From the NCBI RefSeq assembly GCF_003018255.1, contig NZ_CP027440.1: a stretch of DNA of 64,000 bases; one strand, 5' to 3'. The notes below the pieces were generated by a model. That model made no database searches and had not been told where the DNA came from. It saw only the letters and a list, made by a program, of their open reading frames with translations. Each line of letters starts with the position of its first letter. Position 1 is the first letter of the stretch. The stretch comes from Escherichia coli. GTDB taxonomy: Bacteria; Pseudomonadota; Gammaproteobacteria; Enterobacterales; Enterobacteriaceae. Positions 20,944-62,076 of this stretch are shown here, piece after piece. Made by a program: the position numbers and the translations under genes.

Positions 20944-21029
20944 GAACGAAAAAGGCCGCAGAGTTTCACCCCTGCGGCCTGATCCGGGCGCAAATTGCCA
21001 TTACGGCAGCCTGACGCCCGCATGACACG

Positions 21030-21137
21030 TTACTTCCGCTTGTTCAGCCAGTTCACGATCATGCTGGCAAGAATGCCAGCAATGATCGGAGCCGCTAAAT
21101 CATGCCAGAAGGCCATGCCCAGTTCTGCGAGCGTCAT
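21030..21137 (-). CDS. ldr: Ldr-family type I toxin, copy 1 (35 aa)
   Basis: MTLAELGMAFWHDLAAPIIAGILASMIVNWLNKRK, the C-terminal 35 aa of the 80-aa track ORF; LdrD-like single-TM peptide. Terminator hairpin AGGCCGCAG...CTGCGGCCT with T-tract just 3' at about 20950..20985. Confidence 0.8.
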   Translation of the reverse strand: MTLAELGMAFWHDLAAPIIAGILASMIVNWLNKRK

Positions 21138-21184
21138 ATAGCCGCCTGTGTTGTAATGACAACGTTTCGCGGCTATTCTTGAGT

Positions 21185-21250
21185 TGTTTGGGTTCAAGAA
21201 TGGCCCCCGTGGTGTTGTCAGGTGCATACCTGCAACGTGCGGGGGTTTTC
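21185..21250 (+). ncRNA. rdl: Rdl-like antisense RNA, copy 1 (boundaries approximate)
   Basis: Plus-strand hairpin GCCCCCG...CGGGGG followed by TTTTCTCT (21203..21249), antisense to the ldr leader; 5' end estimated from the roughly 66-nt Rdl length. Confidence 0.45.
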
Positions 21251-21512
21251 TCTCTCCAGCAAACAATGCCACCAGGGATTAAGCCCCCGCAACATTGCGC
21301 CTCACCGGAACCTTTCCGGCTTGCCGCTGATTCTACGACTGTTTTTCTGCTCCGGAATCCGTCACGTCTTCACTCTGTGCTGCGCATTCCGCAGAATATT
21401 ATCCGCTTGCAACCGTTGCATTTTTCTTACGAAAAAGGCCGCAGAGTTTTATCCCTGCGGCCTGATCCGGGCGCAACTTGCCATTACGGCAGCCTGACGC
21501 CCGTCTGACACG

Positions 21513-21620
21513 TTACTTCCGCTTATTCAGCCAGTTCACGATCATGCTGGCAAGAATGCCAGCAATGACCGGAGCCGCTAAATCATGCCAGAAGGCCATG
21601 CCCAGCTCTGCGAGCGTCAT
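21513..21620 (-). CDS. ldr: Ldr-family type I toxin, copy 2 (35 aa)
   Basis: MTLAELGMAFWHDLAAPVIAGILASMIVNWLNKRK; I18V relative to copy 1. Confidence 0.8.
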   Translation of the reverse strand: MTLAELGMAFWHDLAAPVIAGILASMIVNWLNKRK

Positions 21621-21667
21621 ATAGCCGCCTGAGTTGTAATGACAACGTTTCGCGGCTATTCTTGAAT

Positions 21668-21733
21668 GGTCTAGATGCAAGAATGGCCCCCGTGGTGTTG
21701 TCAGGTGCATACCTGCAACGTGCGGGGGTTTTC
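21668..21733 (+). ncRNA. rdl: Rdl-like antisense RNA, copy 2 (boundaries approximate)
   Basis: Same hairpin and T-tract 483 bp downstream of copy 1. Confidence 0.4.
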
Positions 21734-21995
21734 TCTCTCCAGCAACCAATGCCACCAGGGATTAAGCCCCCGCAACATTGCGCCTCACCGGAACCTTTCC
21801 GGCTTGCCGCTGATTCTACGACTGTTTTTCTGTTCCGGAATCCATCACTTCTTCACTCTGTGCTGCGCATTCCGCAGAATATTATCCGCTTGCAACCGTT
21901 GCATTTTTCTTACGAAAAAGGCCGCAGAGTTTTATCCCTGCGGCCTGGTCCGGGCGCAAATTGCCATTACGGCAGCCTGACGCCCGTCTGACACG

Positions 21996-22103
21996 TTACT
22001 TCCGCTTATTCAGCCAGTTCACGATCATGCTGGCAAGAATGCCAGCAATGACCGGAGCCGCTAAATCATGCCAGAAGGCCATGCCCAGCTCTGCGAGCGT
22101 CAT
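21996..22103 (-). CDS. ldr: Ldr-family type I toxin, copy 3 (35 aa)
   Basis: MTLAELGMAFWHDLAAPVIAGILASMIVNWLNKRK; identical in protein to copy 2. Confidence 0.8.
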   Translation of the reverse strand: MTLAELGMAFWHDLAAPVIAGILASMIVNWLNKRK

Positions 22104-22150
22104 ATAGCCGCCTGAGTTGTAATGACAACGTTTCGCGGCTATTCTTGAGT

Positions 22151-22216
22151 TGTGTAGGTTCAAGAATGGCCCCCGTGATGTTGTCAGGTGCATACCTGCA
22201 ATATGCGGGGGTTTTC
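22151..22216 (+). ncRNA. rdl: Rdl-like antisense RNA, copy 3 (boundaries approximate)
   Basis: Same hairpin and T-tract in the third unit. Confidence 0.4.
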
Positions 22217-22478
22217 TCTCTCCAGCAACCAATGCCACCAGGGATTAAGCCCCCGCAACATTGCGCCTCACCGGAACCTTTCCGGCTTGCCGCTGATTCT
22301 ACGACTGTTTTTCAGCTCCGAAATCCGTCACTTCTTCACTCTGTGCTGTGCATTCCGCAGAATATTATCCGCTTGCAACCGTTGCATTTTTCTTACGAAA
22401 AAGGCCGCAGAGTTTTATCCCTGCGGCCTGATCCGGGCGCAAATTGCCATTACGGCAGCCTGACGCCCGTCTGACACG

Positions 22479-22586
22479 TTACTTCCGCTTGTTCAGCCAG
22501 TTCACGATCAGACTGGCAAGAATGCCAGCTATGACCGGAGCCGCTAAATCATGCCAGAAGGCCATGCCCAGTTCTGCGAGCGTCAT
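22479..22586 (-). CDS. ldr: Ldr-family type I toxin, copy 4 (35 aa)
   Basis: MTLAELGMAFWHDLAAPVIAGILASLIVNWLNKRK; M26L relative to copies 2 and 3. Confidence 0.8.
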   Translation of the reverse strand: MTLAELGMAFWHDLAAPVIAGILASLIVNWLNKRK

Positions 22587-22633
22587 ATAGCCGCCTGTGT
22601 TGTAATGACAACGTTTCGCGGCTATTCTTGAGT

Positions 22634-22699
22634 GGTCTAGGTTCAAGATTAGCCCCCGTGATGTTGTCAGGTGCATACCTGCAACGTGCGGGGGTTTTC
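22634..22699 (+). ncRNA. rdl: Rdl-like antisense RNA, copy 4 (boundaries approximate)
   Basis: Same hairpin and T-tract in the fourth unit. Confidence 0.4.
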
Positions 22700-23061
22700 T
22701 CTCTCCAGCAACCAATGCCACCAGGGATTAAGCCCCCGCAACATTGCGCCTCACCGGAACCTTTCCGGCTTGCCGCTGATTTTACGATTGCTTTTTACCG
22801 TCAGCACCCGGCAATCTTCCTCATTGCGTGATGCCTTCCAGCTTAATTTCTTTATTTGCATTAGTTGCAGTTCATATCCGGGCTGACTCCAGACTGGTAG
22901 TGAAATGCGCAATTTTGTAGAATTGCGCCTCCTCGCGACCTCCCCAGTGAATCTGTTGCCTCATTTTTTACATACTGCGTATTCGACTTCTCCACCTGTT
23001 GCGCAAGAGAAACTGGGTTTATTCATTTTTGCGAGGCCGACTTCTTTCTGGACAGGACTTT

Positions 23062-28384: not shown

Positions 28385-28562
28385 TGCTGCCGGATGGCGC
28401 TGCACGCAGAGGCACAGCGCCACCGGGTATGCAGATTGTTGACAAAGAGCGCTTTGTTTATGCCGGATGCGGCGCAAACGCCTTATCCGACCTACAAAAT
28501 CGTGCAAACTCAATACATTGCAGAGTTTTCGTAGGCCTGATAAGCGGAGCGCATCAGGCAGT
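28385..28562. repeat. REP/BIME cluster in the dppB-dppA intergenic region
   Basis: Several REP-like palindromes: TGCCGGATGGCGCTGCACGC..., GCCGGATGCGGCGCAAACGCCTTATCCGACCTACA, GTAGGCCTGATAAGCGGAGCGCATCAGGCA. Confidence 0.7.
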
Positions 28563-30767: not shown

Positions 30768-30858
30768 TGTGTAGATCGAATAAGGCGTTCACGCCGCATC
30801 CGACAATAAGTGCGGTGCCGTTGCCTGATGCGACGCTGGCGCGTCTTATCAGACCTAC
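30768..30858. repeat. REP element pair
   Basis: GTAGATCGAATAAGGCGTTCACGCCGCATCCGACA and TGCCTGATGCGACGCTGGCGCGTCTTATCAGACCTAC are canonical REP-type palindromes. Confidence 0.65.
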
Positions 30859-30966
30859 GTCGAGTCGAACCTCCCCGCCCCCGGGGGTTCTCTTCCTCAT
30901 GAGCTACAGATGCAAAAAAGCCTGCTCGTTGAGCAGGCTTTTCGAATTTGGTCGGTGATAGAGGAT
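30859..30966. repeat. 108-bp direct repeat, distal copy (hairpin-terminator plus 19-nt tRNA-Pro 3'-end fragment)
   Basis: Near-identical to 31027..31134 at an offset of 168 bp; contains GCAAAAAAGCCTGCTCGTTGAGCAGGCTTTT and TGGTCGGTGATAGAGGATT, then diverges from the tRNA body. Confidence 0.85.
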
Positions 30967-31026
30967 TACTCGCCACTTCGTGGCTCGCCCTGCGGGCCGT
31001 TGCTGGCGCAACGTTCTCTCGCTTCG

Positions 31027-31192
<166 letters not shown>

Positions 31193-31284
31193 GAATGCGG
31201 GGCGCATCTTACTGCGCAGATACGCCCTCGTCAATCCCTTAATAGCAAAATGCCTTTTGATCGGCGAGAAAGTCAGCAGGCCTC

Positions 31285-42382: not shown

Positions 42383-42390
42383 GCACATCA

Positions 42391-42549
42391 ACGGTTTGAC
42401 GTACAGACCATTAAAGCAGTGTAGTAAGGCAAGTCCCTTCAAGAGTTATCGTTGATACCCCTCGTAGTGCACATTCCTTTAACGCTTCAAAATCTGTAAA
42501 GCACGCCATATCGCCGAAAGGCACACTTAATTATTAAAGGTAATATACT
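42391..42549 (+). promoter_or_regulatory. cspA 159-nt 5' UTR (cold-box / RNA thermosensor leader)
   Basis: Sequence from ACGGTTTGACGTACAGACCATTAAAG... to the ATG matches the recalled cspA leader. Confidence 0.75.
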
Positions 42550-42762
42550 ATGTCCGGTAAAATGACTGGTATCGTAAAATGGTTCAACGCTGACAAAGGC
42601 TTCGGCTTCATCACTCCTGACGATGGCTCTAAAGACGTGTTCGTACACTTCTCTGCTATCCAGAACGATGGTTACAAATCTCTGGACGAAGGTCAGAAAG
42701 TGTCCTTCACCATCGAAAGCGGCGCTAAAGGCCCGGCAGCTGGTAACGTAACCAGCCTGTAA
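42550..42762 (+). CDS. cspA: major cold shock protein CspA
   Basis: 70-aa [73 protein letters not shown] with RNP1/RNP2 motifs. Confidence 0.97.
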
Positions 42763-42791
42763 TCTCTGCTTAAAAGCACAGAATCTAAGAT

Positions 42792-42817
42792 CCCTGCCAT
42801 TTGGCGGGGATTTTTTT
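42792..42817 (+). terminator. cspA intrinsic terminator
   Basis: CCCTGCCATTTGGCGGGG hairpin followed by ATTTTTTTATTTGTTTTT. Confidence 0.7.
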
Positions 42818-42949
42818 ATTTGTTTTTCAGGAAATAAATAATCGATCGCGTAATAGAATCTAGTGTTATTTTTGTGAAGAATAAATTTGGGTGCAATGAG
42901 AATGCGCAACGCCGTAAGAAAGGCGGGAATAACTTCCCGCCAAAGTCTC

Positions 42950-43102
42950 TTACTCTTTCAAATTGCAGGCTAAAAATGCCGCCAGCTCATAACTTCCCTG
43001 TTTAATATGCAATTCACACAGTGAATCTCTTACCATCCAGGTAAAAAATAAAAGCGTGAAACAAATCACTATTAAAGAAAGCAATCTATATTTCTGCGGC
43101 AT
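42950..43102 (-). CDS. hokA: Hok-family type I toxin HokA (50 aa)
   Basis: MPQKYRLLSLIVICFTLLFFTWMVRDSLCELHIKQGSYELAAFLACNLKE, a single-TM Hok/Gef-family peptide; ATG at 43100..43102. Confidence 0.8.
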   Translation of the reverse strand: MPQKYRLLSLIVICFTLLFFTWMVRDSLCELHIKQGSYELAAFLACNLKE

Positions 43103-43162
43103 TCCCAGCCTCCTGTGTTGATTTCCAACGAGTAAGAGGCTAACCTTATGGTGTTCAGGCAT
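42950..43162 (-). CDS. mokA: MokA, the N-terminally extended reading frame of the hok locus
   Basis: 70-aa ORF in the same frame as, and ending with, the Hok peptide; analogous to the mok/hok arrangement. Confidence 0.55.
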   Translation of the reverse strand: MPEHHKVSLLLVGNQHRRLGMPQKYRLLSLIVICFTLLFFTWMVRDSLCELHIKQGSYELAAFLACNLKE

Positions 43163-43380
43163 AGGGTAGCCTCACTTTGATTTATAGTCAGGTGGGGCTT
43201 TTCTCTGTCTGCCTTTCGGTGAATACCTGAGACAAACAGTCTCAAGCACCCACAGCTATTCTAGCTTAATAAGTTCGTTTCTTCTCCTTGATATAATCCT
43301 AAAAAAATCTCATAAAATTAATATATGAGACAATCTTTATTCAGCAGAAGATTATTAAAGGTTGCTCTATTATTTAGCGA

Positions 43381-61974: not shown

Positions 61975-62076
61975 TGCCTGATGCGCTACGCTTATCAGGC
62001 CTACATGATTTCTGCAATATATTGAATTTGGTAGAATTTGTAGGCCGGATAAGGCGTTTTAGCCGCATCCGGCATA
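61975..62076. repeat. REP elements between avtA and ysaA
   Basis: GCCTGATGCGCTACGCTTATCAGGCCTACA and GTAGGCCGGATAAGGCGTTTTAGCCGCATCCGGCA are canonical REP palindromes. Confidence 0.7.

Follow-up and report, generated by a model that had tools for sequence, protein, structure and literature searches.

The ldrD/rdlD pair (LDR-D) of Escherichia coli K-12, a type I toxin-antitoxin module of a small membrane toxin and an antisense RNA, was reportedly described by Kawano et al. in 2002. In the hok/sok system, the 5′ tail of the antisense RNA Sok pairs with the loop of a hairpin in its target, and the translation of mok and hok is coupled. For the Ldr toxins, toxicity on overexpression has been reported for LdrD and LdrA of K-12 (PMC4147584, PMC8309996), and K-12 RdlD has been reported to repress Ldr synthesis (PMC4147584). 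Rdl pairs with the long ldr leader and leaves the ribosome-binding site (RBS) uncovered, and repression has been proposed to be Sok/mok/hok-like, acting through a leader open reading frame (ORF), ldrX (PMC4147584, PMC8167048). A double-stranded RNA of RdlD and ldrD, cleaved by RNase III, was detected in vivo (PMC7373196). Three ldrD/rdlD pairs between bcsG and yhjV have been published for BL21(DE3) (PMC5435950). In the Sib/Ibs system, cognate specificity was shown to be determined by two variable target-recognition domains, TRD1 and TRD2 (Han et al. 2010, PMC2943612). Here, we analysed a tandem array of four ldrD/rdlD units in a 64,000-nucleotide stretch of E. coli DNA (NCBI RefSeq assembly GCF_003018255.1, contig NZ_CP027440.1), hereafter called the window.

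The window is part of the E. coli chromosome, and a match to its segment 20500-23300 is present in 5425 of 5426 complete E. coli genomes, with DETEC-S792 as the best-matching strain (99.9%). The array lies between the end of bcsG (20943) and the start of yhjV (23062), which is the LDR-D position, and its units with a period of 483 bp agree with the definition of an LDR as direct repeats of ~500 bp containing one ldr and one rdl each. Each unit appears to be a complete ldr/rdl module. The object is a known, annotated ldrD/rdlD array that is polymorphic in copy number, and its toxin differences are conservative and common. An initial annotation, made from the sequence of the window alone, had pointed out three toxin variants within this array; the annotations of thousands of E. 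coli genomes include ldrD/rdlD arrays with mixed variants, and by itself this finding adds little. What is new is that the divergence between the copies is concentrated in the 5′ tail of Rdl and the predicted loop of the ldr leader. The locus is a four-copy chromosomal type I ldrD/rdlD array, probably made of old paralogue lineages with near-equivalent toxins and with a substitution hot spot that would favour pairing of each Rdl with the ldr mRNA of its own unit.

Divergence among the copies is sharpest in the Rdl 5′ tail and predicted leader loop

The array, its units and the four antisense RNAs are located as follows.

20946-22796, unstranded: tandem array of LDR-D-type units (Tandem Repeats Finder: one array, period 483, 3.8 copies, 96% matches)
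20946, 21429, 21912 and 22395: starts of the four units, from column-by-column comparison
21186-21251, plus strand: rdl copy 1, 66 nt, RF01813 at 84.6 bits, 5′ tail GUUUGGGUUCAAGAAUG
21669-21734, plus strand: rdl copy 2, RF01813 at 81.8 bits, 5′ tail GUCUAGAUGCAAGAAUG
22152-22217, plus strand: rdl copy 3, RF01813 at 79.7 bits, 5′ tail GUGUAGGUUCAAGAAUG
22635-22700, plus strand: rdl copy 4, RF01813 at 90.4 bits, 5′ tail GUCUAGGUUCAAGAUUA

All four matches span positions 1-66 of the model of Rfam family RF01813 (rdlD antitoxin RNA), whose gathering threshold is 50 bits. In every unit, Rdl nt 1 lies opposite the ldr strand, 49 nt 5′ of the ldr AUG, and the 66 nt of Rdl are complementary to ldr leader positions -49 to -114, without overlap of the RBS or start codon. 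Between copies, 60-62 of the 66 Rdl nt are identical, and outside the 5′ tail Rdl is nearly invariant. The sole stem change in Rdl, from CG to UA in copy 3, preserves both pairs (G-U and U-A).

Column-by-column comparison of the units showed that any two of units 1-3 differ at 15-19 of 483 positions, and unit 4 differs from the other units at 57-61 of 483. Unit 4 has only about its first 400 nt in common with units 1-3, and 47 of the 75 variable columns lie past unit position 400, where the array ends. Among the first 400 unit positions, 28 vary in the window, with 8 of 21 sites variable in a hot spot at unit positions 237-257 (21 nt; Rdl nt 1-17 plus four bases upstream) against 20 of 379 elsewhere (Fisher p = 2.3e-5). 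The ldr ORF is not enriched in variation (6 of 108 sites). The initial annotation had proposed aligning the units to see whether substitutions fall in the region where Rdl and ldr pair; they cluster there, and its question of whether each Rdl cross-regulates every ldr mRNA is therefore apt.

The same pattern was found beyond the window. In 44 distinct units from 19 genomes, mean nucleotide diversity reaches 0.194 for the Rdl 5′ tail, compared with 0.02-0.04 for every other segment, making the tail five- to nine-fold more diverse than the rest of the unit, and the tail is the top 17-nt window of the unit (permutation p = 0.0008). Within arrays, 65 of 66 pairs of units have differing tails. In addition, 5 of the 12 variable sites in the shared part of the K-12 ldrABC array fall in Rdl nt 2-7, the same cluster. 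The sharpest divergence among the copies is thus in the Rdl 5′ tail and predicted leader loop, not in the toxin.

The toxin variants are conservative and already catalogued

The four ldr genes lie on the minus strand and encode peptides of three kinds.

21030-21137, minus strand: ldr copy 1, 35 aa, Ile18/Met26, MTLAELGMAFWHDLAAPIIAGILASMIVNWLNKRK; WP_000170735.1 in DETEC-S792
21513-21620, minus strand: ldr copy 2, 35 aa, Val18/Met26, ...APVIAGILASMIV...; the majority E. coli form, WP_001295224.1
21996-22103, minus strand: ldr copy 3, Val18/Met26 (...APVIAGILASMIV...), protein identical to that of copy 2
22479-22586, minus strand: ldr copy 4, Val18/Leu26, ...APVIAGILASLIV...; WP_000170738.1, found too in Nissle 1917 and other Escherichia species

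The residues and numbering given by the initial annotation (I18 in copy 1, V18/M26 in copies 2-3 and V18/L26 in copy 4) agree with the translations and codons. Codon 18 is ATC in copy 1 and GTC in copies 2-4, and codon 26 is ATG in copies 1-3 and CTG in copy 4; the remaining differences in the ldr ORF among the four copies, at codons 5, 19, 25 and 32, are all synonymous. Both replacements lie inside the hydrophobic stretch at about residues 14-28 (Kyte-Doolittle), as expected from the earlier placement of the changes in the predicted transmembrane (TM) helix. In all four copies, W30 and K33-R34-K35 come after this stretch; a hydrophobic helix, a conserved Trp and a basic C-terminus are the Ldr signature (PMC2887945). 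Residues 1-35 align with profile positions 1-35 of Pfam PF13940 (Ldr_toxin; E 1.3e-26, 92.8 bits), and the peptides are identical to the LdrD NMR structure 5LBJ at 33-34 of 35 residues (94-97%). The NCBIfam HMM library gave no match for the 35-aa Ldr peptides, which is uninformative at such a short length.

Among 56 units from 19 genomes, segregating sites of the ldr ORF fall on codon positions 1/2/3 as 4/2/9, indicating that the toxin ORF is under purifying selection; the changes in the window comprise four synonymous and two conservative ones. LdrA/B/C natively have Ile18, and other Escherichia species have Leu26, as does the E. albertii-type peptide. An exact-sequence look-up of public contigs found the I18 form on at least 1000, the V18/M26 form on at least 1000 and the L26 form on 831. 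The three-variant toxin set is ordinary, already catalogued variation, and as judged from these sequences V18I and M26L are conservative polymorphisms, most likely equivalent in function.

Copy number, alleles and age of the units

Among complete E. coli genomes, annotated ldr genes at the LDR-D locus number 1 (K-12, O157 and LF82), 2 (Nissle), 3 (BL21) or 4. In an evenly spaced sample of ranked matches with 39 chromosomal entries, copy numbers 1/2/3/4 occurred roughly 15/3/14/7 times. Strain DETEC-S792 carries the same array, which differs from that of the window by 2 bases and encodes the same three proteins (WP_000170735.1, WP_001295224.1 twice and WP_000170738.1). GPEC1258 has the same four-copy array with Val18 in copy 1 and also carries the L26 copy, and the second copy of Nissle 1917 is the L26 form. 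The differences between the copies are therefore not read errors, the outcome that the initial annotation had named as refuting it. Of the 16 sampled multi-copy arrays, 8 encode one protein throughout and 8 encode two or three; arrays with mixed toxin variants are common.

The 56 units fall into 11 hot-spot alleles. Outside the hot spot, units with the same allele in different genomes differ at a mean of 6.6 flank sites, against 11.8 for units with different alleles within one genome, so that the units represent paralogue lineages older than the sampled strains. Together with the recovery of the same array in independent genomes, this bears out the earlier view of the repeats as diverged paralogues and not a very recent duplication or an artefact. 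Strong concerted evolution within E. coli was considered and not seen, as units with the same allele are closer across genomes than paralogues are within a genome; in these sequences, homogenisation shows only when species are compared. Few loci stand behind that comparison, as a contig scan with a 33-nt pattern gave 6. Three of the non-E. coli loci (E. whittamii, Escherichia sp. E1V33 and one species separated in GTDB) contain five LDR-D units, and the 21-nt allele of each is also present, unchanged, in E. coli. The flanks of these five units are 15-27 of 379 sites (4-7%) away from E. coli units and no closer to units with the same allele. In this small sample, the pattern fits flanks homogenised within species while the hot-spot alleles persist.

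In genomes with an E. albertii-type Ldr (L026-L029), bcsG is adjoined by one ldr copy and then, in place of yhjV, by a gene with an Imm57 domain, and one identical toxin occurs with three hot-spot alleles among the four genomes. These alleles are mixed in kind: one is identical to an E. coli allele (L026, with flanks unalignable to E. coli units), one matches at 20 of 21 nt and one is new.

The order of the alleles is permuted between strains. The third unit of BL21 (L010) has the allele of the first unit of CX08 (L004), and the K-12 hot-spot allele comes first in BL21 and Tig207 and last in JML285. Such permutation implies, as far as allele order can tell, rearrangement or short-tract conversion beyond the gain and loss of units. 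Units 1 and 2 of OkiPb01698 (L009) have the same hot-spot allele, the only such case among the sampled arrays and apparently a recent duplication. In GPEC1258 (L018), IS200-family and IS3-family transposase genes occupy locus positions 1-657, at the expected 3′ end of bcsG, and this cellulose gene is thus disrupted in that strain.

Predicted leader hairpin and Rdl pairing

Folding of the ~375-nt ldr mRNAs predicted a hairpin in each leader.

21171-21205, minus strand: predicted hairpin in the leader of ldr copy 1, GGCCAUUCUUGA-[ACCCAAACAAC]-UCAAGAAUAGCC, from folding
21654-21688, 22137-22171 and 22620-22654, minus strand: equivalent predicted hairpins of copies 2-4

The predicted hairpin has the form GGC(C/U)A(U/A)UCUUGA-loop-UCAAGAAUAGCC and lies ~45-80 nt 5′ of the ldr AUG. 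It was predicted in 13 of 13 sequence variants, the ABC type included, and the hot spot corresponds to its apical loop plus two stem sites. The putative -10 box of rdl is the complement of the 3′ arm of this hairpin.

The duplex formed by the Rdl tail is predicted at -35 to -38 kcal/mol for cognate pairs and at -18 to -31 kcal/mol for non-cognate pairs. Non-cognate Rdl/ldr pairs contain 4-6 mismatches in 66 nt, 2-4 of them in the tail. By analogy with Sib/Ibs, the clustering of substitutions in this segment suggests cognate Rdl-ldr specificity.

Despite its name 'sok', Rfam family RF01794 describes the leader of the hok mRNA in sense orientation, and its true match in the window lies at 43100-43251 on the minus strand, just 5′ of hokA and on the sense strand (124 bits). 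On the four ldr leaders (21135-21288 on the minus strand and equivalents), the model scores 26.5-30.7 bits, below the threshold of 59, and the leaders do not belong to the family. It nevertheless aligns end to end with the ldr leader, its hairpin falling onto the hot-spot hairpin and its last three bases onto the ldr AUG. This likeness is one of architecture and not of membership, and it hints at a leader architecture or ancestry shared by hok and ldr.

Proposed mechanism and alternative explanations

In the mechanism that we propose, unequal crossing-over would change the number of units (1-4) between strains. Each unit would give a minus-strand mRNA of ~375 nt, with a long leader, a 35-codon ORF and a terminator, together with a 66-nt plus-strand Rdl. 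The single-stranded 5′ tail of Rdl would nucleate pairing on the apical loop of the leader hairpin, and the divergence of the 21-nt segment would bias each Rdl toward its own ldr mRNA. The start of pairing is placed at this segment by analogy with the tail-to-loop recognition of Sok/hok and with the recognition domains of Sib/Ibs. In a stronger form, to which we give somewhat less than an even chance, the 21-nt segment of Rdl tail and leader loop would act as an address code, in which a few ancient allele classes are kept distinct by selection, with the remainder of the repeat homogenised inside each species, and each Rdl is largely specific for its own ldr mRNA. No address code for Ldr/Rdl was found described in the searched literature.

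Several points weigh against the proposed mechanism. Full non-cognate duplexes are predicted to be very stable (-118 to -134 kcal/mol), and as 60-62 of the 66 Rdl nt are shared, the whole stem-loop included, cross-repression is plausible. The genomes with an E. albertii-type toxin have a single copy at the locus, yet their hot spot varies. Covariation lends no support to the hairpin, since 9 of its 12 pairs are invariant and no compensatory changes were found. Two hot-spot sites, unit positions 238 and 240, fall narrowly beyond the Rdl as delimited by Rfam. A strict sigma-70 consensus scan detected no promoter in the units, and we infer the promoters and transcription starts from hand reading, with 8 of 12 consensus matches. 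No experiment on Rdl specificity or cross-talk was found in the searched literature, and the mechanism of RdlD was called unknown by a 2021 review (PMC8309996). The hot spot may accordingly be an unconstrained loop that drifts neutrally, the four ldr mRNAs all being repressed by a common pool of Rdls and the array changing dosage only, which we take seriously while leaning against it. Besides the shared Rdl sequence and the variation at single-copy loci, this alternative draws on the visible constraint on the rest of the unit (ORF, promoters, stems and terminators), which may leave the loop as the sole free sequence, and on the repression of IbsA by non-cognate Sib RNAs (PMC2943612). It is harder to reconcile with a hot-spot diversity of 0.19, about four times that at ldr third codon positions (~0.05). 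Discrete alleles that are identical across Escherichia species, with flanks 4-7% apart, argue against free drift and, on sequence grounds, against a mutational hot spot as well. Furthermore, pairs of units with the same allele make up 1 of 66 within arrays, against ~9 expected from allele frequencies, in a sample that is not phylogenetically independent.

The three toxin variants might instead differ in function (toxicity, pore properties or targets), the array representing a graded or diversified toxin set. Both replacements do lie in the membrane helix, and LdrA and LdrD, which are 57% identical, were reported to act differently (PMC8309996). This explanation is nonetheless unlikely: few replacements are as conservative as V to I and M to L, Ile18 is native in LdrA/B/C and Leu26 is the state of other Escherichia species, half of the sampled multi-copy arrays have the same protein in all copies, and the same array in GPEC1258 has Val18 in copy 1, from which I18 is a recent, lineage-specific change. 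It is very improbable that the differences or the four-copy structure result from sequencing or assembly errors, or from a very recent duplication. Tandem repeats of 483 bp are well known to cause misassembly, but the same structure and variants recur in independent complete genomes, each variant is present on at least 831 contigs, and the 15-19 sites that distinguish the units are not randomly distributed. A bias of each Rdl toward its own ldr mRNA, within an array of old paralogues with near-equivalent toxins, is the reading that we prefer.

Transcription signals, plus-strand ORFs and other features

Putative promoters and the terminators of the ldr transcripts were assigned as follows.

21151-21179, plus strand: putative rdl promoter, TTGTAA-17 nt-TATTCT, 6 nt 5′ of Rdl nt 1, hand-read; repeated at +483, +966 and +1449
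21330-21335, 21813-21818 and 22296-22301, minus strand: putative ldr -10 boxes of copies 1-3 (TAGAAT), hand-read
22779-22784, minus strand: putative ldr -10 box of copy 4 (TAAAAT), hand-read
20953-20980, 21436-21463, 21919-21946 and 22402-22429, minus strand: intrinsic terminators of ldr copies 1-4, from a terminator scan
22797-22877, unstranded: region upstream of the copy 4 ldr promoter, mostly unlike the inter-unit spacer of units 1-3 (e.g. 21348-21428), from unit comparison

Every unit has intrinsic terminators on both strands, one per transcript. The hand-read -10 box and the terminator, which delimit the ldr transcript, imply an mRNA of ~375 nt. Copy 4, proximal to yhjV, differs from the others in its upstream region and in its -10 (TAAAAT versus TAGAAT), and it may be transcribed or regulated unlike the internal copies.

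The initial annotation had also described overlapping long ORFs on the plus strand that differ between units. Such ORFs exist, 109 aa long in units 1-3 but only 67 aa long in unit 4, and their sequences do differ between units. As genes, however, they were rejected: variable sites fall on codon positions as 17/9/11, without an excess at third positions. The 109-aa frame is closed at its start in 5 of 37 internal units, and no RefSeq annotation of these ORFs was present at the sampled genome loci. Judging from the sequences, the plus-strand ORFs are almost certainly not genes.

An AUG in the ldr frame is present at 21225-21227 on the minus strand, with equivalents in units 2-4; it is the complement of the Rdl apical loop and lies 30 codons 5′ of the ldr AUG. 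The frame from this AUG is open into ldr in all four copies of the window. A conserved N-extended Ldr, or an ldrX starting from this upstream in-frame AUG, was rejected, as 10 of 56 units contain an in-frame stop, and no conserved leader ORF was pinned down in the 56 units.

The remaining Rfam matches in the window, at 42390-43251, 30774-31193, 28496-28538 and 61997-62039, are a cspA thermoregulator beside the hokA/sok leader, an RtT RNA with a tRNA, naRNA4 and two ES036, all ordinary E. coli features.

Significance and comparison with known systems

The natural variation of the array points to one 21-nt segment where pairing probably begins and where any cognate discrimination would probably reside, and the long-standing question of the Rdl mechanism becomes testable by swaps of this segment. 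In a strain with several copies, the remaining ldr/rdl pairs may or may not compensate for the deletion of one of them. If an address code exists, such arrays would be assembled from mutually orthogonal modules, like plasmid incompatibility determinants.

The closest relative of the array is found in the ldrD/rdlD of K-12, which has the same position between bcsG and yhjV, a 35-aa toxin, a 66-nt Rdl located 49 nt 5′ of the AUG and matching terminators. K-12 has one unit where the window has four, its LdrD has Phe3 where all four window copies have Leu3, and it has a hot-spot allele of its own (GUCUAGAGUC). The array of BL21(DE3) shares the locus, the 483-bp period and the mixture of protein variants, but it has three units, its hot-spot alleles are different and differently ordered, and it lacks I18 and L26. 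The ldrA/B/C-rdlA/B/C array of K-12 (kdsA-chaA) is likewise a tandem LDR array, with toxins 1-2 residues apart and substitutions clustered in the same Rdl 5′ tail, whereas its period is 535 bp, its toxins are ~57% identical to LdrD and its locus lies outside the window.

Among more distant systems, hok/sok resembles ldr/rdl in its long structured leader, in an antisense RNA that lies off the toxin RBS and in the proposed mok-like ldrX (PMC4147584), although its toxins are unrelated in sequence to Ldr. Sib/Ibs is similar in being a multi-copy type I module with near-identical antisense RNAs that differ mainly in short segments. Sib spans the complete ibs ORF and contains two recognition domains, whereas for Rdl we infer both a recognition site and discrimination, which would reside in the single 21-nt segment that covers the 5′ tail.

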